Assembly (NCBI GenBank): GCA_020059745.1 | Contig: JAGVBK010000002.1 | Span: 104,301-168,300 of the forward strand | DNA length: 64,000 nucleotides | Direction: 5' to 3' | Source: Candidatus Shapirobacteria bacterium | Lineage (GTDB): Bacteria > Patescibacteriota > Microgenomatia > UM-FILTER-40-11 | In this document: positions 2,947 through 53,015 of the stretch, in pieces | Position numbering within the stretch: the stretch's first letter is position 1 | Layout of the letters: each line of letters begins with the position of its first letter | Position numbers and translations under genes: made by a program | The notes under the pieces: generated by a model | The model's input: the letters and a program-made list of their open reading frames with translations, nothing else | Databases searched by the model: none | Told to the model about the DNA's origin: nothing

Positions 2947-5900
2947 TTAGTATACCCTAATTTTTTCCTGATTCAAAGCAACAATCGCGCTTATGGTTGC
3001 GAGCAGCAAGGTAAAACCAAAATATTGAAGATACTGGGGGATGAAAATCAGAACTACTCTGCTCTCGTTTTCCGAGCCAGGCAACACCCAACCGTTTTCC
3101 CAATTATTGACAAGAACATGATCATTAATCTCCCGGCCAACTAAAGGCAGTAGAAAAGCGGGTCTTTTAATTAAGCTTTCTCCTTCGAAGTAAGCTTTCC
3201 AGCCTTCATGATAAGACTGGGATAAGACAAGAAGGCTTTCCTGCCGTGGGGGGACATCGATTTTATAAAGGCTGGGGTTGGGGTGAGAACTTTCCGCCTT
3301 CATGTATTTAATTGGAGCCAAAGAAACATCTTTTTGGAAACGAATTCCAGAAAGAAAGTAGTATGGAATTGGGTTGATAGTAATCATCCCCAAATCATTG
3401 ACAGATTCATGCCTGCCAATAGAGATATTGTCAAAATGGAGCCGGTAGCCAATGCCTGATTTCTGCATCGGTGGTTGGATAATGAACTTCTCTCCTCCTT
3501 CTTTTTGAAGATAAAATTCCTGGTCTGCCCTTCTTGCACTTTGATTTTCCAGCCAAAAAAGCAGGCTTTTGCCTTTGACATTTTCATTCTCAACTTTAAT
3601 AAGATAGCCGAATTTATGAAGCAAATTCTCAAAACTAAAAGTGGCTGAGCAGTTGGTGGAATTAACGGCGCTAAGCCTTAGAAAGTTATTCCCCTGTTTA
3701 TTTGCAATTTCATTTTTGACTGTACCGAAACTGAATTGATTGCAGTTTTTAGCTTCTAAGCCTCCGGCAGTCGGATTAACTTCACCGCTGAAATAGCCCC
3801 CAACCTTAGGAACAATCACCTCGATATTCCTTCCCTGAACATTTACCTTTGGAATAAGATACTTAACATCGCTAAAGTCCCCGGGGTTTACCCAAATGAG
3901 TTCTCTGCCGTCAAAATCTGGAAGCCTTAGTTCATATGACAAAACCTCTTGAGGCACTTCCTTTGAAAAAATAAAGCTGTCTTTTGTTTCCTTAATATTA
4001 AAATCAAAACCTTCTGTCCCCCTGCCGGTAAAAATGGAACGGAACGGATAGTAGTAGTCCGCTTCTTTTTGCTCTGAATATATCCCCAAATCCAAAAAAG
4101 CCCGGTCATAACTTCCCCACCTGTAAGAAGAAGCCACTTTGGCAGTATCGGTAGAAATAAAGACATAATTTTCTATTGGATAGTCCAGATTAACTTTATA
4201 AAGCAGGATATTGCCAAAAGTTTTTTCAAGGCTGAATTTTGGCGAAGAAAACATCTCTTCAAGCTCGTCAAAACCCAGAGCTTTATAGTTGCCGGTATTG
4301 TAAATGTTTTTATCGACAAGCGCGTATTCTATTTGGTACTTATCAAATATCTTTTCAAATATTTCATTTTTCCTTGAAAAAAGAGCATACGACATTTCCC
4401 AGTAATAGTTCTCGTTTTGGCTGCTCCACATGTCAAAATTACGGTCTAGAATCGGCTGGTTAATACCATACCAAATAAAACCCGAGCCGGTATAATTCCA
4501 ACGGTAAAGACTCCAACCCCAAAAACTTGATTGGGGAAAATCGGCAATTCTCCCGTCTTTACCGCTTTTTTTAAGATAAGAAAAAAGCTCAAAATAGTTT
4601 TCGGGAATGCGGGCTTTTACCCTTGGGTAAAATAATTTACCCTGAAAAACCGGATACAAATAAAACACGGGCAAAAAAGCCAAAAGGACAATGATTAAGA
4701 GGCTCTTTTTTGAGTTTGCCTTTGAACTTAACCAAAAACAAAATGCACCAAAATACAAAGAAAGGCAAAAAGCAAGCAAAGCGGAAAACTTAGTAAAAGG
4801 AAATCTGAACATCTGAGAAAATAGCGGAAGCTTAAAGAAAGCTTTTGACAAAAGCGAAATAACCGGTGTTTCGTTGGCTAAAACTAAAAAAGACAAGAAG
4901 AAAACCGGCAAAAAAGAGATTAATTTTTTAAATTTTAAAAATGAAATTAAAGCGCCTGCCGTTCCTAAGAAAAAAAGCAAAAACCCAAAGAAAGAAATCA
5001 CCGGATTTTCGAGGTGTCCTGTCCAAGGCGCCATTAGATAATTCACTGTTCCGTTCTCACTTGTTTCCGTGGTATCAAACCAAAAACCTTTAAGAAGAAC
5101 GACATTTTTTAGATCCCCGTATTTTTTGTTTTTAAGTAAGTTGTCTTCGGTTGTCATCTGGCTAATTTTTGACTGGACCGTGATATTAACATCCGAAAAG
5201 ACAAAATAAAGATTTGGCAAAAGCCAAAAAGCGTTAGTGATAAAAATAAAAGCAAAAGAAAGCAAAACCCTCTTAAGACTGCCTTTGTTTTGCAAAAGAT
5301 AAACAAAAGAAGCCAAACCCCAAGCCATTAAATAGACCGCAAAAAAGGTGCCTACATATCCCTGTGGCACAGCCAGCAAATTCACCAAAAGAAGAAAAAT
5401 AAGGCTCTTTTTATCCCTTTTCTCCAGGAAATTAAGATTAACTAAAAACAACCAGGGCAAAGAAGCAAAGTGGTGAGAAAAAGCTTCAAAAGGAACATAA
5501 AAAAGCTGAATTGTGGCCAGGTTAAAAAGATAAAAGACAGAGCCGGCCAGAGCGGAAAGTTTTTTCTTACCTTTTCCTGCCAAGAGAAAAGAAAGTAAAA
5601 AGTAAATCCCCAAAGACCCCAGGTAAAGCATTAGAAAGTGGTAAAAATATCTGAGAAACGAACTTGGGAGAAACAAAGAAAAAATCCATAAAATTAGCTG
5701 CCTTGGCAAGTCTGCGGCATGGCCCATGCCACCCATTAAACCCAAGCCCTGATACTCCTGCCAGGAAGCAAAAAATGATCTTTTAAGATTAAGGCCAAAA
5801 TCAAACTCAGGATGAAGGTTATCCCAACCTGAAAGCCATGTTCCGGCATGAGAATTTGCAATGCTTATAGCCAAAAAGACGGCAGTTAAAATCAGCACCG

Positions 5901-8403: not shown

Positions 8404-9549
8404 CTACTTGACAAGTCCCAGATACTGCTCCCGCCAGAATGTGGCTGCAATAGCCATTCCTTCCCACCCTACGGGAATTCTGGCTTTGGGATAGCTTGGG
8501 ATCAATATCAAGTTTGGGTCGGTCGGCACCTCCAGACGCTCTCCGTCGAACGGAAATTCGAACGGATTCCTGATGAAAAACGCGTCTTGGGGAGGTGCCT
8601 GCCAGTTGCCGTTGCCCAGATCGACGAGCCTGACACTCGGTGCAAGGCCGAATGTTGAGCGGATCCACGCTTCGTTCACCTGTGAAGGCGAAAAAGCGGG
8701 GGTCGCACTGGGAACGACGGGCGTTGGGGCAGCTAGCGGAACTGGTGTCTGAGTTGGCACAACTTGGGCTACCAAAGTAGCTGTCGGCTGTACCAAACTT
8801 GAGACCTGACCGATTTGACCAACTGAGGTCACAGGGATCACGCCAGTGATCCTGTGATACTCGTCAATACTGAAAGGCCTGAACGTGATCCCCTGTACAG
8901 GACCACACCAACCAGCAGGAATTCCTGACCCAACTGCTTCTGGGGGAAAACCCTCTTCTAGGGTCCTCCCGTGCAACTCCCGCTGTCTGCGGTCCGCCAT
9001 CCAGCCATCTTGCCGGAAAGGAGTGAAGTTACAAACCTCAATGGAAACAATATTCCCAAAGAGGTCTTTCTCCTCCGGCACCTTCCAGCTCCATGGCTCA
9101 CCCCTAGCCCTGCTAACCTCGCTGGGCTCAATGGACGGCTGAGCCTGTCTCCTTGTTGCAAGGATAACAAACTCATCCACTGACCTTGGCCAATCCTCCA
9201 TGACCTCAAGGCCTAGAACCCTGATGTCGTCCAGAGTCTGACCGCCAGTCAGAGTAAGCCCGAAAGCCTGAACCCTAGGTGACGGTGCCATTGCAACCGT
9301 CGGTTCGGATTGAACAGCCTCCTGACCGGGAGTCGGAGTCACAAGGACCTCAACAACCCGAGTCACTTCGACCGGAACCTCCTTCTCGACAACGACGGTC
9401 TCCTTGACCACCTGAGGGACGACCCTGGTGACCTCGACCGGGACCGTCTCCTTGACGATCTCGGGCGTTGGTGTCAGAGCACTTTCCCTGAGCGCACAAC
9501 CCGTGATCATCACGATAGCCACCATTACAACCAGGAATATCATCTTCAT
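8404..9549 (-). CDS. lipoprotein, hypothetical (GC-rich island)
   Basis: 381 aa. Signal peptide with lipobox-like ITGC. Tandem VKETVPVEVTRVV/KEVPVEVTRVVEV repeats and Pro/Thr-rich linkers. Region is about 57% GC. Confidence 0.6.
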   Translation of the reverse strand: MKMIFLVVMVAIVMITGCALRESALTPTPEIVKETVPVEVTRVVPQVVKETVVVEKEVPVEVTRVVEVLVTPTPGQEAVQSEPTVAMAPSPRVQAFGLTLTGGQTLDDIRVLGLEVMEDWPRSVDEFVILATRRQAQPSIEPSEVSRARGEPWSWKVPEEKDLFGNIVSIEVCNFTPFRQDGWMADRRQRELHGRTLEEGFPPEAVGSGIPAGWCGPVQGITFRPFSIDEYHRITGVIPVTSVGQIGQVSSLVQPTATLVAQVVPTQTPVPLAAPTPVVPSATPAFSPSQVNEAWIRSTFGLAPSVRLVDLGNGNWQAPPQDAFFIRNPFEFPFDGERLEVPTDPNLILIPSYPKARIPVGWEGMAIAATFWREQYLGLVK

Positions 9550-9559
9550 CTCAACCCTC

Positions 9560-10156
9560 CTAATCCCTCTGATGTCTCCGAAGAAACCCTGGAATGTCCA
9601 ACTCCGAACCGGGCGGATCCAGAGGATTTTCAGGCGTCTGCCTTTCCTCTTTCATCTCCGCCGCCCTGAAATTCAACCGTTCCAATTCCTCGATAAGCTC
9701 CTCCCTTTTCTCGTTCAGCTTCTTGATCTCATTTCTCGCCTGCTCGAGTTGAACTCTTTTTTCGCCAACGACACTAGTCAACTCTGCCACAGTCTTCTGT
9801 AGTTCGAGAACTTCTCCGTACAACTCATTTTTTCGACGCTGGCCTTCCTCAATCTTCTCGTCTGTTGTTGAGGCAACTTCCTCTTTCCTCCCTCTCACGT
9901 TCAAGATTATGGAAAGAACGAAAAGCAAAACCCCAACGACCAGGAGAATCCAGACCCAAGGCTCAAAAATCGCGAAAAAGTCGACGAGGACAAGCCCAAC
10001 AACAATATTTACCAGGCTCACCCCCAAAAACACAGTACCAACAATAAGTAAGACCAACACCAGGCGCTTCATGTCTTCTTCTCCTTTGCATGCCGATGTC
10101 AAAGAACTACTTTTGGCTCCTTCCAAGAACCGCAATTGGTCCTCTTTCTGGGCCAA
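9560..10156 (-). CDS. membrane protein with coiled-coil, hypothetical (GC-rich island)
   Basis: 198-aa ORF. The likely start is the internal MKRLV at about 10072. Two TM helices followed by a charged coiled-coil (EELIEELERL). Confidence 0.5.
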   Translation of the reverse strand: MAQKEDQLRFLEGAKSSSLTSACKGEEDMKRLVLVLLIVGTVFLGVSLVNIVVGLVLVDFFAIFEPWVWILLVVGVLLFVLSIILNVRGRKEEVASTTDEKIEEGQRRKNELYGEVLELQKTVAELTSVVGEKRVQLEQARNEIKKLNEKREELIEELERLNFRAAEMKEERQTPENPLDPPGSELDIPGFLRRHQRD

Positions 10157-10285
10157 AAGACCGATTTTTCAAAATCGGAATAATACCCACTATTAATGAA
10201 CATCTTTCCGACTTCAAAAGACAACCAGCCGGAGAGAGAAAGATACGCTTGCGCGTAAACAAACTCTCTCCGGCGAGATGCCATC

Positions 10286-11086
10286 CTACTCGAACCAAAC
10301 CACTGCGGTCCAGACCTTAACGTGCCCCGGCCCCTTGAATTTGTCTAGGTTTTCCCCAAGAATTGGGTTCCACCCGGTGACCAAGGCATTCTCGGGCACA
10401 GCGAGCATGACAGGGTTTCCACCACTGTTATAGTCAAAGCTGCACCCATCCTTCCGAAGGGCCCAGACACCACCAGTGACAACATTGGCTTGAAGCCAAT
10501 CGATGCTTGGGCAACCCTCGGGTTGGTCCGGAATCGGGAGCCTCGGCAAAGGCGGATTGAACACCACTGGGAGAAACAAAATACTTTCTCCAGGTGTCGG
10601 AACCACCGTTGGCTCGGCGGTTGCCATTGCAGTTGGTTCCGGCGTGGCGGTCGGCGTTGCCGTTACAGTTGGTACTGTAACCGTTGGCTCGGCCGTTGCC
10701 GTGGCGCTCTGTGGCTCAATCCACAGAACCCCGTCCCAAAATTCTCCCGAACCAGGTCCTTCCACCAGAAGGTCTTTTTGGCCCTCCGGCTCCGGCCGCG
10801 GATCCCAACCAGTCATCTTGGATCCACCCGCGGGGACAACGAGCAAGATCGGCTCCTCAAACGGGCCTCTTCCGCTCTCGAAAACAAAATCACAACCTTC
10901 GTCGGGCCCGACTTTCCACATCGAGAGTTCACCCCCGATGTTTTCCGCGACCCACTCGAGATCCGGGCACTCTTGCGGGGGTTCCGGAATGGCAACCTCC
11001 GCTGAGAGCTGGAACGGCAAAACTGCCGCCAGCGCGACCACAACCGCGAGTACAAGACTGCGCTTCATTTCCCCTCCTGGGATCAT
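10286..11086 (-). CDS. secreted protein with internally duplicated Cys-containing domain, hypothetical (GC-rich island)
   Basis: 266 aa. Signal peptide (likely start MKRSLVLAVVV). Two homologous domains (PQECPDLEWV...GCDF...TGWDP and PEGCPSIDWL...GCSF...TGWNP) separated by a T/P/A-rich linker. Confidence 0.6.
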   Translation of the reverse strand: MIPGGEMKRSLVLAVVVALAAVLPFQLSAEVAIPEPPQECPDLEWVAENIGGELSMWKVGPDEGCDFVFESGRGPFEEPILLVVPAGGSKMTGWDPRPEPEGQKDLLVEGPGSGEFWDGVLWIEPQSATATAEPTVTVPTVTATPTATPEPTAMATAEPTVVPTPGESILFLPVVFNPPLPRLPIPDQPEGCPSIDWLQANVVTGGVWALRKDGCSFDYNSGGNPVMLAVPENALVTGWNPILGENLDKFKGPGHVKVWTAVVWFE

Positions 11087-11216
11087 AAGGATGGCAAATA
11101 CTCAATGTGCTTCTGGTCTCACCAGCCAGATTGGCGCTTACGCCTTTCTAGTTATTGAAACCAGAAAAGGAAATTGAACTCCTAGTTTCCTTTCCCGGCT
11201 TCAACCGGAAACTTCT

Positions 11217-48047: not shown

Positions 48048-48788
48048 ATGGCCAAAGATAAAGATAAAAAAGACGAAAAAGAAAAGAAAGTAAAATCTTC
48101 CGGTAAGGGCGAGCGGTTTGTGGATATGTCAGCCGATGCTGTAGTTGTCGACGAAAATGTTCTTGAAGAACAACTTAACGAGGAAAAAGAAGAGAAAGAA
48201 CCTAAAGTCAGAGGTAAAAAATACCAGGAAGCAAGAAAAAAAGTTGATACCACCAAAGCCTATTCGCCTAAAGAGGCCTTTGAGCTTCTTAAAGAAGTTT
48301 CAGTTTCTAAGAAAAACGGCACTGTTGAAGCCCATTTCAATGTCACTGAAAAAGGCTTAAGCGGAGACACCAACCTTCCCCATTCAACCGGAAAAGCAAG
48401 GAAAGTGGCCATATTTAGCGACGAACTGGCAGAACAAATCAAGGCCGGAAAAATTGACTTTGATGTTCTTTTGGCCACTGCTGCTGACATGCCGAAAATT
48501 CTGCCTCTAGCAAAAGCTTTAGGACCCAAAGGTCTGATGCCAAACCCAAAAAGCGGCACTCTTGTTCCTGATCCCAAAAAAGCTTTAGAAAACTTTTCGG
48601 GAAATAGCCTTCACTATAAAACTGAAAAAGATTTCCCTCTTATCCATACTGTCATTGGCAAAGTTGACCAGCCGGTTGAAGAATTAACAGAAAACCTTAA
48701 AGCCCTGGTAAAAGCAGTAAACCCCAAAAACATCAAAAAAGTCACGGTCAAATCCACCATGAGCCCGGGAATAAGAGTAAACTTCTGA
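48048..48788 (+). CDS. rplA: 50S ribosomal protein L1
   Basis: L1 fold motifs (AHFNV...KGLMPNPKSGT). Lys/Glu-rich N-terminal extension. Confidence 0.9.
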   Translation: MAKDKDKKDEKEKKVKSSGKGERFVDMSADAVVVDENVLEEQLNEEKEEKEPKVRGKKYQEARKKVDTTKAYSPKEAFELLKEVSVSKKNGTVEAHFNVTEKGLSGDTNLPHSTGKARKVAIFSDELAEQIKAGKIDFDVLLATAADMPKILPLAKALGPKGLMPNPKSGTLVPDPKKALENFSGNSLHYKTEKDFPLIHTVIGKVDQPVEELTENLKALVKAVNPKNIKKVTVKSTMSPGIRVNF

Positions 48789-48792
48789 AAAA

Positions 48793-50100
48793 TTAGCTTG
48801 TCTTGTTTCTTAATTGCCTGAATTTGTCTTGAACTTCAATTGGTAAATCCTCTGTGGCTTTCCCCTTCTCACTGACCATGATTCCGTAGATAGTGTCAAG
48901 CACTTCCTCTGGCCTTAACTCACGACCCCCGGTTTCAAAAGATGAACGCCTTAAAATTGCGTATTCAAGTTCCAAAAGATTTTGAGCATTTTCTAAAGTA
49001 GGATTTCCTCCCCTTTTTACTGCTCTTGCCCTTAATTCAACTACTTTATCCCTCAGTCTTTCTCCATTGGTAATATAGTTTTTATCTAGCTCTCCGCTTA
49101 GATAACCTTTTATTCTATTAACCAAATCCTCTGTTTTATAAGTAAAATTATGGCTGCCCATAATTGTCCTTCCTTTAAGTGCTTCTAAAAGTTCAGAAAA
49201 AAGCTGTGAAGAAGCAATGCTTGGTTTTTCCCGAGATTTTTCTTCAGGCTTTAAAGCCGGCTCAGCCCGATATCCTGTCACTTCGGTGGCAACAACAGTA
49301 ATGTCATCTTTTTTTGCCCTGAAATGGCGGCTTTGCGCTCTTTCCAGAGCTTTTTCCACCAACCTTTTTGCCACTTGTTTTGAATTCCCAAAAAGAGCTT
49401 CTTTAATTTCCTCATCAGTCAAGTTATCGGAAACTCCGTCAGTTACCCCGATAATCCTGTCTCCGGGTTTAAGAGCCAAGACAAAAATATCAGGAAGTTC
49501 TTCTTCGTCGCTGCCAAGATAGCGAACCAGCTTATTTCTGTGCTTGTAAAAAAGACCCACCTCCGGTCTAAGATTTTTAAGTTCCGACTCATTTTTTGCC
49601 TGGTCAACCGCCTTAGCTTCGCTTGGAGTTATTTTCCCGGCATCAACCATTTCATTTAAAGGATTGTGGTCTTTGGTTATTTGTTCAAGCCTTCCGTCCC
49701 GGTAAAGGTAAACCCGGCTGTCTCCAATATTCCCAATTACTACTTTTTTTCCTCCTTCCACAAAAAGAGCAGCAACCGCAGTTGTTCCAGACTCAGGAAC
49801 TCCATTTCTAACACCTCTTCCTGCTTCAATAAAAGCTTCCTCTAAAGTCCTTCTTGCCTCAAACTCATTGCTGTTAGAAGAAAAACCTTTTAGTTTTCTG
49901 GAAAAGACCAAATTCGCCCTTGAGGCAGCCTCTTTCCCTCCTGACATGCCTCCCATACCATCAAAAACAGCAAAATTGCTTCCTTCGGTCCAAAAAGAGT
50001 CTTCGCCCTTTTCCGCCCTGTTTTCAACAGCCAAAGTAGCAGAAAGCCTTTGGCTGGTTTCCGGAGGTCGGGCAAATTCCTGAAAAGATTGGTCGCTCAT
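48793..50100 (-). CDS. PP2C-family Ser/Thr phosphatase with a roughly 180-aa C-terminal domain of unknown function
   Basis: FAVFDGMGGMSGGKEAAS, VTDGVSD and DDITVV PP2C motifs. Inserted antisense between rplA and rplJ. Confidence 0.7.
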   Translation of the reverse strand: MSDQSFQEFARPPETSQRLSATLAVENRAEKGEDSFWTEGSNFAVFDGMGGMSGGKEAASRANLVFSRKLKGFSSNSNEFEARRTLEEAFIEAGRGVRNGVPESGTTAVAALFVEGGKKVVIGNIGDSRVYLYRDGRLEQITKDHNPLNEMVDAGKITPSEAKAVDQAKNESELKNLRPEVGLFYKHRNKLVRYLGSDEEELPDIFVLALKPGDRIIGVTDGVSDNLTDEEIKEALFGNSKQVAKRLVEKALERAQSRHFRAKKDDITVVATEVTGYRAEPALKPEEKSREKPSIASSQLFSELLEALKGRTIMGSHNFTYKTEDLVNRIKGYLSGELDKNYITNGERLRDKVVELRARAVKRGGNPTLENAQNLLELEYAILRRSSFETGGRELRPEEVLDTIYGIMVSEKGKATEDLPIEVQDKFRQLRNKTS

Positions 50101-50194
50101 CTTAGACCATGATATTTTGTTTTTTCTTTCAATGCAACCAATACCATTGCCAAGAAATAAATATAAATGCTATAATATTAATAGCTTATAGTAT

Positions 50195-50530
50195 TCATTG
50201 TCTGATAGCCGTTGCCGTCGTCTTCTTCCCCCAGGAAAAGGAGGCATCGTGGCAAAGCCGGCAAGAAAGGGCAATGGATCAAAGCCTCGGGGTGAAAAGG
50301 GTCAAGCCAGGCACAGAAGCGCCAGGCCAGTCATTCCTGATCCTTCTCCACTCGTGGCAGGCGGAGACTACAGTGACGAGAATTTGTTGGCAAGAGCCGA
50401 AAGGGGCCTGCTACATTCTCTGCACATCACCTGAAGTCCCCCCTCCCCACCGGTCCGGTGTTGAAGCGCTGCTTGCAGCCCTTCTTTTTTTCACCGGACC
50501 TTTTTCTGGCTTTCTTCTACTCCCTTGCTT
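50195..50530. ncRNA. GC-rich ORF-free structured block upstream of rplJ (candidate L10 leader or other ncRNA)
   Basis: About 335 bp at roughly 56% GC, in an otherwise AT-rich gap. No convincing ORF on either strand (the plus-strand ORFs start with TTG and look like GC-driven artefacts). Contains AAAGCCGGC...AGGGCAA and GGGGUGAAAAGGGU motifs and many hairpins. A terminator-like hairpin at 50604-50656 precedes the rplJ RBS. Confidence 0.35.
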
Positions 50531-50674
50531 TTAAAACACTTTCATGCTATTATTTTTTAAGCCTTAAGACAGTAAGTGTCTGGTGAAACCGGACTTAATT
50601 TCTTACCGAGGGGACAAATTAATCTTTTGTTTTTGCCTCGGTAAAGCCGGGGTTTTTATTTTTTAAGGAGTAAA

Positions 50675-51193
50675 ATGAAAAAACAAGATAAATTTTTTGA
50701 AGTTGACAACTTAAATGCAAAAATTAAGGACGCCAAATCAGTGGCCCTGGTTGACTACCGCGGCATTACCGTCTCTCAGGCTACTGCTTTAAGAGAAAAA
50801 GTAAAAGAGGCCGGCGGTGAGCTTCAGGTTGTAAAAAATAACCTTTTCTTTAGGGCCTTAAGACAAAACGACTACGAAGTTGAAAAAGAAAAACTTGAAG
50901 GCCCTTCCCTTGCCCTTTTTGCCAACGCTGATGAGATTACTCCCCTTAAAGCTTTAGTTTCATTTGCCAAAACATCAGGACTTCTACCTTTTAAAATTGG
51001 TTTTATGGAAGGAAGAGTTCTTTCTGAGGCTGAACTTAACCGCTTTGCCAATCTTCCCAGCAAACAGGAACTGCAAGCCAAACTCGTCGGCATGTTGGCA
51101 AGTCAGCCCGGCCGTTTGGTTTATGCTTTAAACTACAACTTACAAAGACTGGCTTTAGTATTAAATGCTGTAAAAGAGAAAAAACAGCAATAA
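50675..51193 (+). CDS. rplJ: 50S ribosomal protein L10
   Basis: L10 family similarity over the whole length. rplJ-rplL synteny. Confidence 0.9.
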
Positions 51194-51230
51194 TTGTTTA
51201 AAATTTAAAATTTTTGTAAGGAGGTGTAAA

Positions 51231-51641
51231 ATGGCAGACGAAGCTCAAGTATCCAAAAATGTTGAAGGCTTAATTTCAGAAATCGAAAAACTGTCTGTTT
51301 TAGAACTGGCAGATCTAGTCAAGGCTTTAGAGGATAAATTCGGTGTTAGTGCCGCTCCTGTAGCCATGGCTGCTCCTGCGGGCGCTGCTCCCGCTGCTGG
51401 CGGCGAAGCTGCTCCAGCCGAGGAACAAACCACTTTCAATGTGGTTATTGCCAACGCAGGCGCCAACAAAATTTCGGTTATTAAGGCTGTAAGAGAAATC
51501 AACCAAAACCTGGGTTTAAAAGAAGCTAAGGATTTAGTTGAAGCAGCCCCGAAAGAAGTCTTAACCGGGGTTAACAAGAGTACCGCTGAAGAAGCCAAGA
51601 AAAAACTCGAGGCAGCAGGCGCTACTGTTGAATTAAAATAA
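51231..51641 (+). CDS. rplL: 50S ribosomal protein L7/L12
   Basis: Ala/Pro-rich hinge. C-terminal domain KAVREI...[10 protein letters not shown]...VELK. Confidence 0.9.
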
Positions 51642-51656
51642 GGCTAAGCACACCTT

Positions 51657-51686
51657 AAAAATCCCCTCTTTCTGAGGGGATTTTTA
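51657..51686 (+). terminator. intrinsic terminator after rplL
   Basis: AAAAATCCCCTC-TTTC-TGAGGGGATTTTT hairpin followed by a T-tract. Confidence 0.8.
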
Positions 51687-51799
51687 GTGGAAAAACTACA
51701 AAAATTGTAATTGCTTGACAAGCGGTTGTAGAATACATCTATAGAAAAAAGCTAAAAAGAGGCTAAAGCGCTTCTTAACAGCTTATTTTTTGTTCTTTG

Positions 51800-52617
51800 A
51801 AAAGGGAGACAGAGTTGAAGACCGAAAGGCGAAGGCACAAAACCTTCGGCTTTCGGTCTTCAGCATTCAAGATAGCCAAAAATGGCAGAAAGGAGAACTT
51901 GGCTACGGATTAGTCGATCCGCCTTACTCACCCCCAGGAGAAAAAAGTGAGAGTAGTTACGGTCGGTTCGGCAAAGGTAGTTCCAACTATCGGGGAAGAG
52001 ATGTTCCCAATGGTCGGCTTCGGACTGGGAGTCCAAACGTCAATGGGAGGCTGTTTCGGACTTAGGTCTGACCACGATGAGTCGGTTCTTGTCTGGAACA
52101 GCCAAAAGAAGCTTCCCGAGCTGCTTGAAGAAGCAGGTATTCCCTTCGTGCAGACGGGGAAAGAGTTCACAACTACTGTTCCCGGCTGCAGGGAGACTGT
52201 AATCAAATCTGGAGAAAGATTGTCTTGGAGCTTCCCGATGCCCACCCTGACAAGCGGACACCCAAAGTTCGCATTCCTTCCCCAACCCCGGTTCGCACGC
52301 ATTGGAGAAGGAAGAAGACAATACTACCTGATCAAGCTTCTCGGCGCACTGGTCGGCACCCAAGAGGCCATTGTATGCCTCGAGTTCGGACAGTTCAGCT
52401 CAAGTTACAAGAACTTGTGCTACAAGTTCGAGCTCAAGGGGGTGGTGGCAATCGGACCAAAAGAACATCTTTTCTGGCAGTTTGAACTACCCCCAGAAGA
52501 AAGCTTTGATTCTCTTCTCAAGAGAATCAAGCTTTACTAGATCCTGGCTCGCGTGCCAATTTTCCCCCAGCCTTGCGGCACGCGAGCCTTCCGTTTGGCA
52601 CTCTCTGTCTCCCTTTT
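51800..52617. mobile_element. 818-bp GC-rich element bounded by perfect 15-bp terminal inverted repeats (candidate non-autonomous mobile element)
   Basis: Left end AAAAGGGAGACAGAG (51800-51814) and right end CTCTGTCTCCCTTTT (52603-52617) are exact reverse complements. Subterminal 13-bp and 12-bp stem hairpins sit at 51816-51860 and 52546-52588. About 52% GC, against roughly 37% in the flanks. Confidence 0.5.
51947..52540 (+). CDS. hypothetical protein encoded inside the TIR element
   Basis: 197 aa with a GTG start and AGGAGA RBS 6 nt upstream. No TM and no recognisable transposase or nuclease motif. Confidence 0.45.
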   Translation: MRVVTVGSAKVVPTIGEEMFPMVGFGLGVQTSMGGCFGLRSDHDESVLVWNSQKKLPELLEEAGIPFVQTGKEFTTTVPGCRETVIKSGERLSWSFPMPTLTSGHPKFAFLPQPRFARIGEGRRQYYLIKLLGALVGTQEAIVCLEFGQFSSSYKNLCYKFELKGVVAIGPKEHLFWQFELPPEESFDSLLKRIKLY

Positions 52618-52799
52618 GTAATTCTTCTATTTTCTTTCTCTTTTTTTTACTATAAAAACATCAATATATTTCAAAATGTCTAAAAGTATTTCACCCCTTT
52701 TATATCCTATTGACAACTTTTTAACTACTGTGATACTCTTTTGATTAGAAAAACATATTCTAAAGTTTAGTATTTTGAATTTCTCCCGAAAGGAGCTAT

Positions 52800-53015
52800 A
52801 TGCCTGATAAAAAGAATCTTAACCTGGATAATCTTCCCGACTTGCTTACTGTCCGCGAGGTAGCTGAAATTCTAAGAGTTTCTCCCCTAACCATTAAAAG
52901 ATGGGGCAAAAGAGGCAAGCTGCCGGCAATCAGAATCAATTCCAGAGGCGACAGAAGGTATAAAAAAGAAGCGGTCCTTTGGATGCTAGGTATTCAACCG
53001 AAAGACCAAATCTAA
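52800..53015 (+). CDS. helix-turn-helix DNA-binding protein (excisionase/MerR-like HTH_17)
   Basis: 71 aa. LLTVREVAEILRVSPLTIKRWGKRGKLPAIRI is a classic Xis/MerR-type HTH. Confidence 0.6.
   Translation: MPDKKNLNLDNLPDLLTVREVAEILRVSPLTIKRWGKRGKLPAIRINSRGDRRYKKEAVLWMLGIQPKDQI

Follow-up and report, generated by a model that had tools for sequence, protein, structure and literature searches.

The interval 50100-50674, between an antisense PP2C gene and rplJ, most probably (about 0.78) carries on its plus strand two independent units: a small-gene cassette (Unit A) and an ordinary rplJL promoter with its L10 leader (Unit B). The coordinates in Table 1 are those of the whole 64,000-nt stretch of DNA that was analysed (the window). 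A preliminary description had read the GC-rich block in this interval as a structural RNA; comparison with L027 (Logan SRR27370448), the only relative found with the block, replaces this reading with a conserved small protein-coding ORF, on the evidence of reading frame, codon periodicity and protein similarity.

Table 1. Features of the interval between the PP2C gene and rplJ, with the flanking genes
Feature	Position	Strand	Remarks
PP2C gene	48793-50100	minus	antisense, between rplA and rplJ; start codon at 50100
Unit A (small-gene cassette)	about 50147-50518	+	promoter, leader, ORF, terminator-like hairpin
Promoter-like P1 of the cassette	50147-50176	+	-35 TTGCCA, 18-nt spacer, TG-extended -10 TATAAT
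5' leader of the small gene	50183-50248	+	66 nt
Long imperfect hairpin (5' domain), predicted	50193-50279	+	outer stem AUUCAUUGUCU / GGGCAAUGGAU
Small-protein ORF	50249-50434	+	61 codons, GTG start, TGA stop
Conserved 3' element	50452-50500	+	outer stem GGUCCGGUG / CACCGGACC; hairpin 50463-50484, U7 run 50485-50491
Unit B (rplJL promoter and L10 leader)	50525-50667	+	
Promoter P2 of rplJL	50525-50553	+	-35 TTGCTT, 17-nt spacer, -10 TATTAT; read directly from the sequence
L10 leader (Rfam RF00557)	50545-50667	+	covariance-model match
rplJ (ribosomal protein L10)	50675-51193	+	ORF list; Pfam Ribosomal_L10 on the identical gene (precomputed annotation)

The GC-rich block contains a small open reading frame

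The segment 50195-50530 has a GC content of 55.4%, against 41.1% for the window, and only 2% of 336-nt windows are as GC-rich. Several features given in the preliminary description are present as reported: a hairpin with a T-run (50635-50653 plus tail) lies directly 5' of the rplJ Shine-Dalgarno sequence, with the ATG at 50675; the antisense PP2C gene, whose Pfam match covers only residues 37-274 of 435, splits rplA from rplJ; and the motifs AAAGCCGGC-N5-AGGGCAA (at 50254) and GGGGTGAAAAGGGT (at 50289), which had been likened to conserved regions of RNase P RNA, can be found, while GGUAAAC is absent. ACAGAA, which had been called missing, occurs at 50313, inside the ORF, where it has no meaning for RNase P. 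The segment had also been called free of ORFs, yet it holds a 141-codon ORF (50109-50534) and a 78-codon ORF (50198-50434), and nested within the latter is the conserved 61-codon ORF with a GTG start.

An Rfam scan of the whole window at gathering thresholds, together with a scan of 50050-50720 (671 nt, both strands) at E <= 10, returned L10_leader (RF00557) and nothing else. The RNase P, tmRNA, 6S and SRP models were unmatched on either strand in the 671-nt search at E <= 10, and ARAGORN found no tmRNA in the window; the block is therefore not RNase P, tmRNA, 6S or SRP RNA. A divergent RNase P RNA or other housekeeping RNA, which a size of about 300 nt, the GC-richness, a GGGUGAAA-GGGU-like string and one ACAGAA would call to mind, accordingly has a probability close to nil. 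The motifs cited for it lie inside a coding frame that diverges freely in L027, and the block is missing from close relatives, where an essential RNA with a fixed locus could be missing only if its gene had relocated. Lack of an Rfam match and lack of conservation in relatives had been named as signs against a structural RNA; the first was found, yet one relative does conserve the block, in the form of a coding gene.

It is barely conceivable that the block, taken on its minus strand, serves the divergent PP2C gene as a long 5' UTR or regulatory region. The PP2C start codon lies about 50-90 nt from the block, and the minus strand folds somewhat better than shuffles, but L027 has the block and no PP2C gene and another relative, L013, has the PP2C gene and no block, which refutes the idea; furthermore, the scan showed no promoter-like site on the minus strand beyond the block. 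On both strands the predicted fold of the whole block is only modestly better than that of shuffled sequences (z = -2.3 for plus, -2.1 for minus).

The ORF evolves in the manner of a coding sequence

The 61-codon ORF encodes a basic, hydrophilic product, MAKPARKGNGSKPRGEKGQARHRSARPVIPDPSPLVAGGDYSDENLLARAERGLLHSLHIT, in which GQAR, PVIPDPSPLVAGGDYSDENLLAR and GLLHSLHIT occur. Gene calls for it are inconsistent: NCBI annotates the 61-aa protein (RJR25522.1), JGI and Logan call a spurious 141-aa frame, and no gene is called in L027. The homologue in L027 is a 59-codon ORF that shares the Shine-Dalgarno sequence and the GTG start with the window (AAGGAGGCAUC-GUG is identical); the two stop codons, TGA in the window and TAG in L027, occupy one alignment column, with a length difference of 6 nt. 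The Shine-Dalgarno sequence stands 4 nt upstream of the start, with the same spacing as at rplJ. Because a 1-nt indel in the leader breaks the upstream frame, the start is fixed at the GTG at 50249 and earlier starts are excluded.

Between the window and L027 the ORF is 43% identical as protein and 56% as DNA, with identities of 0.56/0.65/0.37 at codon positions 1/2/3 and, for this one pair of sequences, an uncorrected pS of 0.71 and pN of 0.39. Codons 1-5 carry three synonymous and no non-synonymous changes, and these synonymous-only changes begin exactly at the GTG, the leader 5' of it being invariant. In the diverged part, the proteins reach a BLOSUM62 local score of 47, against 20.6 +/- 4.2 for shuffles (p = 2e-4, one pair). 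Only this pair of frames is stop-free in both genomes; the other frame pairs score <= 34 or contain stops, and other frames gain stops in L027. Judged by this two-genome comparison, the ORF is a genuine, fast-evolving coding sequence. Its GC3 is 0.52 and that of host genes about 0.35, a difference that is unusual for a gene long resident in its genome.

These observations bear directly on a rival reading, in which the block would be a novel noncoding RNA, structured and about 310 nt long, whose 5' and 3' domains are conserved and whose middle varies; the 61-codon ORF would then be a by-product of its GC-richness. Such an RNA would fit a GC-rich block in an AT-rich genome, with its own promoter and terminator-like end, conserved ends (95-100% and 91%) and a diverged middle, a fold that beats shuffles (z = -2.4 in the window, -3.3 in L027) and candidate long-range pairings such as CCAGGAAAAGG / CCUUUUUCUGG. 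We nevertheless consider it very unlikely: in the middle a single frame remains open and its stop aligns, codon periodicity and significant amino-acid similarity are seen, and other frames acquire stops; synonymous-only changes set in at the GTG, next to an invariant leader; a canonical Shine-Dalgarno sequence precedes the start at the same distance as at rplJ; and no Rfam family matches.

The coding ORF belongs to a small-protein family with no relatives detected beyond L027. A word-index search of the 78-aa translation against 5.8 billion proteins matched only itself, and Pfam, NCBIfam, PHROGs and PADLOC gave no match for ORF61, for ORF59 or for the family of ORF197, a protein encoded on the other side of rplJL. 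A search for the function of the cassette proteins also produced a PDB sequence match to the designer 'Bagel' propellers, which is an artefact of an 18-residue repeat motif.

An invariant leader and a structured 3' element flank the ORF

P1 is the only sigma-70-like site that a scan of 49900-50800 found, with 11/12 consensus positions and a predicted transcription start at about 50183. Its -10 hexamer and the sequence downstream are conserved in L027, whereas the upstream sequence differs. No significant support emerged for the cassette promoter being a duplicate of the rplJ promoter or marking a long target-site duplication (window, p = 0.39; L027, p = 0.06).

Aligned with L027, the leader is identical at 65/65 bases, plus one 1-nt indel that throws the upstream frame out of register; the stretch is therefore noncoding. 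The flanking rplK, rplA, rplJ and rplL genes are only 77-85% identical between the same two genomes, and the leader is conserved beyond even the first and second codon positions of rplJ (0.89 and 0.94). Across the block, the 5' segments are 95-100% conserved and the region 50448-50518 at the 3' end is 91% identical, while the middle has diverged so far that the middle third of the block cannot be aligned. The cassette has been kept through about 17% divergence of the neighbouring genes with its untranslated regions almost unchanged, and in this alignment the leader and the 3' element are far more conserved than the ORF.

The consensus fold predicts a helix in which an anti-Shine-Dalgarno sequence of the leader, GUCUUC (50220-50225), pairs with GGAGG (50240-50244), the Shine-Dalgarno sequence. 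This helix lies within a 5' domain hairpin that, as predicted, also takes in the GTG start and roughly the first ten codons. Both the helix and the outer stem of the hairpin are predicted alike for the window and for L027, with paired columns that are invariant in these two sequences, and the GNGS codons in the outer stem are identical at the DNA level. The fold of the 5' domain has a z of -2.35 in the window and only -1.0 in L027. The translation-initiation region is predicted to be more paired than in 94% of 52 window genes, with a mean unpaired probability of 0.28 for the window and 0.38 for L027, where window genes average 0.50 +/- 0.15; predicted Shine-Dalgarno sequestration is thus moderate, not extreme. 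With two sequences of the cassette known, something other than RNA structure could account for the invariance of the leader, which is the only puzzling feature of the cassette.

In the 3' element, an outer stem encloses a terminator-like hairpin followed by a U7 run. The fold is shared by the window and L027 (z = -4.7 and -4.9), and the inverted repeat also appears in the inverted-repeat listing. L027 has an interrupted U-run after the hairpin (UUAUUCUUUU); the terminator may therefore leak, and transcription of the cassette may continue into the rplJ leader.

These elements suggest how the cassette might be expressed. Transcription would start near 50183 from the sigma-70-type P1; the 66-nt leader and the first codons would fold into the long hairpin, pairing GGAGG and the GUG start with the upstream anti-Shine-Dalgarno sequence. 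The leader would then throttle translation by sequestering the ribosome-binding site until it is opened, or would be bound by a protein, for example the ORF product, and the conserved hairpin with its U-run would end or attenuate the transcript just before the rplJ promoter. We infer only that P1 and the terminator are probably active and that the leader may act by throttling or may be bound by protein.

A standard L10 leader lies upstream of rplJ

The preliminary description had also suggested an autoregulatory L10(L12)4 leader with an attenuator, and this part stands for 50545-50667 only. The segment matches RF00557 at 51.8 bits (gathering 44; model positions 1-138), ends 8 nt before the rplJ ATG and is a standard, already known L10 leader. 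A terminator scan found 50635-50653 with its U-run, and the antiterminator UUACCGAGG (50606-50614) / CCUCGGUAA (50636-50644) overlaps both neighbouring helices; in folding of truncated transcripts the antiterminator forms and competes with the terminator. The leader also contains an anti-antiterminator hairpin, the putative L10(L12)4-binding element, and its first hairpin has a UAA-containing internal loop.

In Bacillus subtilis, the L10 leader mediates L10(L12)4-dependent attenuation by a three-structure model (PMC4538822), which the helices of the window leader match. By analogy, the first hairpin is expected to be the putative L10(L12)4 binding site: L10(L12)4 would bind it and block the antiterminator, so favouring the terminator. 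The window leader resembles the RF00557 Bacillus-type attenuator in its place directly 5' of rplJ, its mutually exclusive antiterminator and terminator helices and its U-run; it differs as a short form of 123 nt versus the 138-nt model and otherwise in nothing notable.

Upstream of rplJ, the RF00557 family or its conserved core was found in six relatives; the matches in L013, at 49.5 bits, and in L003, at 47.9 bits, exceed the gathering score. The leader core GACAGUAAG...CUUACCGAGGG is conserved in 5/6 relatives and altered but recognisable in L002, and the P2 core CTTGCTTT...ATGyTAnnAT is invariant in all six relatives aligned.

The same comparison separates the leader from the GC-rich block. 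An autoregulatory leader that extended upstream to take in the block would be suggested by their adjacency on one strand, and read-through of the weak U-run in L027 could join the two transcripts. However, the invariant rplJ promoter sits between them, the covariance model covers 50545-50667 only, and L013, L001, L002 and L003 have the leader and lack the block at this locus, so that the extension is extremely unlikely and essentially refuted; for the block, the earlier guess of an L10 leader fails.

The cassette was found in part of one clade only

L013 has the PP2C gene and the L10 leader in the same synteny but lacks 50145-50518. In this relative P2 directly abuts the PP2C-side flank, which places the right-hand edge of the insertion at about 50518. 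L027, which is closer to the window than L013 is, carries the block between rplA and rplJ.

The route that led to this relative was a phmmer search with the neighbouring ORF197, which retrieved P0125, encoded on the L027 contig. L10-based loci in GTDB genomes yielded relatives with the leader and without the block, and PP2C-based searches yielded L013 along with distant PP2Cs whose contexts are unrelated. When window proteins were looked up by exact match, only the same species was found; identity was at least 99.9%, and the block showed no SNP. For the block, BLAST searches of phage and plasmid records gave nothing real; three pattern scans of viral contigs gave nothing, or chance 15-mer matches without nhmmer support; and no further copies of the block were found in the window or in the fetched loci. 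In these searches, the cassette was confined to part of a Microgenomates (candidate phyla radiation) clade.

The ORF197 cassette (block 2, 51739-52661) likewise has conserved ends and a diverged ORF. The window and L027 have both cassettes, and L013 has neither; shared ancestry explains this co-occurrence, which is therefore no evidence of joint function. A CCCCCAGRA motif common to the block and block 2 was not significantly enriched (5 found versus 1.7 expected).

Comparison with known systems

The moron concept reportedly comes from lambdoid phage genomics (Juhala/Hendrix 2000). The term denotes a single gene that brings its own promoter and terminator, is inserted between genes adjacent in relatives and often deviates in base composition. 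Unit A is similar in having its own promoter- and terminator-like signals (consensus predictions only), in sitting between PP2C and the rplJ promoter, which are adjacent in L013, in its GC content (55% versus 41%) and in having no detectable relatives outside a narrow clade. It differs in lying in a bacterial chromosome beside a ribosomal operon, not in a prophage, and no mobility signature is evident. The neighbours (rplA, PP2C and rplJ) and the lack of any match among phage records and viral contigs speak against residence in a phage.

RNA thermometers, type I toxin mRNAs such as hok and autoregulated ribosomal-protein leaders all sequester the ribosome-binding site, and they share with the cassette the predicted pairing of Shine-Dalgarno sequence and start with upstream sequence, a leader conserved far above the ORF and a possible pairing of the 5' and 3' ends; here, by contrast, there is no Rfam thermometer or leader match, and sequestration is only moderate. 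The cassette also differs from type I toxin mRNAs, in that its peptide is basic and hydrophilic with no hydrophobic stretch and no antisense RNA or cognate partner was identified. As a candidate, a type I toxin-antitoxin mRNA was rejected on that peptide and on the failure to find a minus-strand promoter-like site.

Some small RNAs have a dual function and also encode small proteins, such as SgrS/SgrT and RNAIII/hld. The cassette resembles them in the length of its predicted transcript (about 300 nt), in having a promoter and a terminator to itself, in its short ORF and in its conserved non-coding segments. A transcript that both encodes the small protein and uses the leader, the 3' element or both as RNA (a protein-binding autoregulatory site, a base-pairing regulator or read-through into the rplJ leader) is possible, if unlikely. 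It would account for a leader that exceeds the rplJ first and second codon positions in conservation, for outer-stem GNGS codons unchanged in their DNA, for the conserved, strongly structured 3' element and for the same pattern of conserved ends and diverged ORF in block 2. In the cassette, however, the conserved RNA parts flank the translation-initiation region and the terminator, so ordinary cis-regulation of ORF translation and termination explains them equally well.

A bolder proposal, which we regard as decidedly doubtful, is that the leader, perhaps with the 3' element, would be a novel regulatory RNA that acts in cis and could be a translational switch, responsive to a protein or a ligand, for a rapidly diversifying small basic protein. 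The cassette and the ORF197 cassette would then form a clade-specific accessory pair on either side of the stalk operon in some Microgenomates, and the L10/L12 stalk might be their target or share their regulation.

Discussion

The reading as a small-gene cassette beside an ordinary L10 leader is mainly a correction: what looked like a GC-rich, well-folding "noncoding" island in an AT-rich genome of the candidate phyla radiation is a fast-evolving small protein gene, as far as the comparison of two genomes indicates. The attenuator architecture of the Bacillus type is also found in Microgenomates. The cassette leader deserves the attention of specialists, with 65 nt identical where ribosomal-protein genes differ by 15-23% and the ORF protein is 43% identical. 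If more homologs confirm the pattern, the leader element and the small-protein family would both be new ones, from an uncultivated phylum.

Two units upstream of rplJ

The window derives from a Candidatus Microgenomates genome (candidate phyla radiation), and its 50000-52800 stretch is 100% identical to GCA_003599075.1 contig QZIO01000009 and one JGI contig; a second JGI contig and several Logan contigs match it at 99.9% or better. On the plus strand, secE, nusG, rplK and rplA are followed by rplJ and rplL, past the minus-strand PP2C gene and a flagged interval that the preliminary description (50100-50674) read as a structured noncoding block and possibly an L10 leader. We recovered its GC-rich segment (55.4% at 50195-50530, a level reached by only 2% of same-size windows; whole window, 41.1%), the hairpin with a T-run ahead of rplJ and all the quoted motifs. 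The segment is not ORF-free, holding 141- and 78-codon ORFs, and ACAGAA, said to be missing, lies at 50313.

Using cmscan (Rfam 15), we found L10_leader RF00557 as the sole cis-regulatory match in the window, taking in the hairpin and U-tract noted earlier. Folding of progressively longer transcripts predicted three mutually exclusive structures (first hairpin, antiterminator and terminator), a layout that matches the one established experimentally in the rplJL leader of Bacillus subtilis, where L10(L12)4 on the first hairpin promotes termination (PMC4538822). The leader and the rplJ promoter are kept in every relative obtained, and two relatives' leaders (L013 and L003) also exceed the RF00557 gathering threshold. 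The L10-leader reading is correct for 50545-50667, where it is already known biology, and fails for the GC-rich block, which is a separate unit.

Features of the rplA-rplL region and its slots (window positions unless a relative is named)
Feature	Position	Strand	Details
rplA	48048-48788	+	
PP2C phosphatase gene	48793-50100	-	slot content in window and L013
Block promoter, sigma-70-like	50147-50176	+	TTGCCA, 18 nt, TG-extended TATAAT
5' leader	50183-50248		65/65 identical to L027, plus one 1-nt indel
ORF between leader and 3' element	50249-50434		56% DNA, 43% protein identity to L027
3' element	50448-50518		91% identical to L027
Outer stem of 3' element	50452-60 pairs 50492-500	+	perfect 9 bp, encloses hairpin and U7
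Terminator-like hairpin	50463-50484, then U7 run	+	predicted fold
rplJ promoter	50525-50553	+	CTTGCTTT, 17 nt, TAnnAT
L10_leader RF00557	50545-50667	+	51.8 bits (gathering score 44), entire model covered
L10 leader first hairpin		+	GACAGUAAG...CUUAAUUUCUUAC, predicted fold
L10 leader antiterminator	50606-14 pairs 50636-44	+	UUACCGAGG with CCUCGGUAA, predicted fold
L10 leader terminator	50635-50653, then U-run	+	predicted fold
rplJ	50675-51193	+	
rplL	51231-51641	+	
L001 slots	160-770, 1968-2714 (L001)		HD-domain-like gene and 248-aa minus-strand gene
L002 slots	3760-3800 (L002)		nothing inserted

The block's promoter is the single sigma-70-like site detected in the region and is directed into the block, and its 3' element is predicted to be far more stable than shuffles (z = -4.7). 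Because the block begins promoter-like and ends terminator-like, with the rplJ promoter 3' of its 3' element, it carries start and stop signals of its own and is not part of the transcription unit of rplJ. At 50448-50497, the window and L027, a relative's contig (Logan SRR27370448), share without any change a 13-bp palindrome (CACCGG-T-CCGGTG) and, 44 bp further downstream, a third CACCGG half-site; these repeats make up the predicted outer RNA stem enclosing the terminator-like hairpin, yet could equally be a DNA operator just 5' of the rplJ promoter.

Distribution among relatives

When relatives' loci were compared, as the preliminary description had proposed, loci retrieved from GTDB genomes by way of L10 (L001-L003; L10 63-68% identical) had the leader and lacked the block. 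L013 carries P0002, the only full-length PP2C homolog among 5.8 billion proteins (50% identical), with the window's synteny (PP2C, rplJ, rplL, HTH gene, WecG, MreB, PEGA) and a partial gene past PP2C at the place of rplA. Its PP2C-side flank abuts the rplJ promoter directly (aatgcaacc / actcccttgctttt), so the window holds ~374 extra bases, 50145-50518. Block translations had no homologs in the 5.8-billion-protein index. A full phmmer scan with ORF197, from a second cassette 3' of rplL, gave two distant homologs, one of which sits on L027. There the order is rplK, rplA, a 650-nt gap, rplJ, rplL, the ORF197 homolog and the HTH gene, with a clear block homolog inside the gap. Same-species contigs of other samples showed zero SNPs in the block.

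The PP2C gene itself, present in the window and L013, is missing from L027; Pfam covers residues 37-274 alone, with no match over the C-terminal ~160 residues.

The Rfam scan of 50050-50720 (both strands, E <= 10) matched no RNA family in the block, and no RNase P, tmRNA, 6S or SRP across the interval; ARAGORN found no tmRNA. Together with the presence/absence pattern, covariance-model searches refute the block as an extended L10 leader, as a PP2C 5' untranslated region and as the RNase P suggested earlier.

A small coding sequence in the block

Window and L027 ribosomal-protein genes share 77-85% DNA identity, and conservation of the block is very uneven along its length. Both genomes keep AAGGAGGCAUC-GUG and a single open frame (61 codons in the window, 59 in L027), with stops TGA and TAG in one alignment column; since the 1-nt leader indel leaves no upstream start in frame in both genomes, we place the start at GTG 50249. 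Codons 1-5 show three synonymous differences and zero replacements, and identity at the three codon positions is 0.56/0.65/0.37, with uncorrected pS at 0.71 and pN at 0.39. From codon 14 on, the DNA is essentially unalignable and the BLOSUM62 local protein score is 47 versus 20.6 +/- 4.2 in shuffles (p = 2e-4); remaining frame combinations score <=34 or carry stops, and in L027 stops interrupt the 141-codon frame that JGI and Logan call. By these comparisons, the diverged part is coding sequence, not structural RNA. These signatures at 50249-50434 disfavour a pure noncoding RNA, and the transcript may have a dual function. We regard it as established how the cassette is laid out, that its ORF is coding, and that leader and 3' element are under unusually strong constraint, and put the coding-cassette reading at about 0.8.

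The ORF61 product (MAKPARKGNGSKPRGEKGQARHRSARPVIPDPSPLVAGGDYSDENLLARAERGLLHSLHIT) has a basic N-terminal half, probably disordered, and a probably helical C-terminus; nothing matched it in Pfam, NCBIfam, PHROGs or PADLOC. Gene calls differ: NCBI has the 61-aa frame, JGI/Logan (L016/L017) a 141-aa product at 50109-50534, and L027 none, an example of how inconsistently a small GC-rich gene can be annotated.

For expression of the coding cassette, we tentatively propose Shine-Dalgarno sequestration, a model somewhat short of even odds. Transcription would start near 50183, and the leader and first ~10 codons are predicted to fold into a ~90-nt hairpin with outer stem AUUCAUUGUCU / GGGCAAUGGAU, in which GUCUUC (50220-25) would pair with the Shine-Dalgarno GGAGGC (50240-45), and GCCG (50214-17) with UGGC (50250-53), overlapping the start codon. 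The hairpin would limit ribosome access: of 52 window genes, 94% have a more accessible initiation region, although accessibility in L027 is only at the 19th percentile. The paired columns are invariant between these two sequences. Conservation of the entire leader could reflect an RNA fold, binding of a protein, possibly the basic product itself, or something else. Just ahead of the rplJ promoter, the transcript would be ended or attenuated by the 3' hairpin with its U-run; because the U-run is interrupted in L027, some read-through is possible.

Accessory genes around the stalk operon

A second GC-rich cassette (51739-52661, 49-54%), present in L027 and L029 and absent from L013 and L002, follows the rplL terminator (51660-51686) and precedes the MerR-type HTH gene. 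Its leader of ~110 nt hardly varies and contains a 20-bp hairpin (51816-51862), a 12-15 bp inverted repeat (51800-14 / 52603-17) links the 5' and 3' ends of the cassette, and its 3' hairpin (52546-57 / 52577-88) shows compensated changes in L027. Its ORF197 (51947-52540; GTG start, Shine-Dalgarno AGGAG) represents a real protein family of three members, matching no family or fold. The HTH gene (52800-53015) encodes a 71-aa HTH_17/MerR-like protein differing at 1 or 2 residues from those of L013, L027 (counted from the shared MPDKK start; the annotated ORF begins 23 codons upstream) and L029, conserved at least as well as these genomes' L10 and L12; its promoter region (52662-52795) is 94% identical to L013.

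Elsewhere, the window's most GC-rich island (8404-11177; 58-62% GC, GC3 0.55-0.61 versus ~0.35 for the host) is probably foreign DNA. It holds three minus-strand ORFs (381, 198 and 266 aa), one with a weak sub-threshold Phage_holin_3_6 match and two without Pfam matches.

The rplA-rplJ and rplL-HTH slots vary in content across the clade and appear to be hot spots at which genes flanking the stalk operon are gained and lost. The block resembles a moron-type cassette in its predicted promoter and terminator, its deviant composition and its position between genes adjacent in relatives; unlike a moron, it is chromosomal and without a mobility signature. Because L027 is the closer relative, the joint occurrence of the block and the ORF197 cassette in it and the window reflects shared ancestry. 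Overall, the interval comprises a known L10 leader and a new, narrowly distributed small-protein gene, which is unusual only in that its leader is perfectly conserved.
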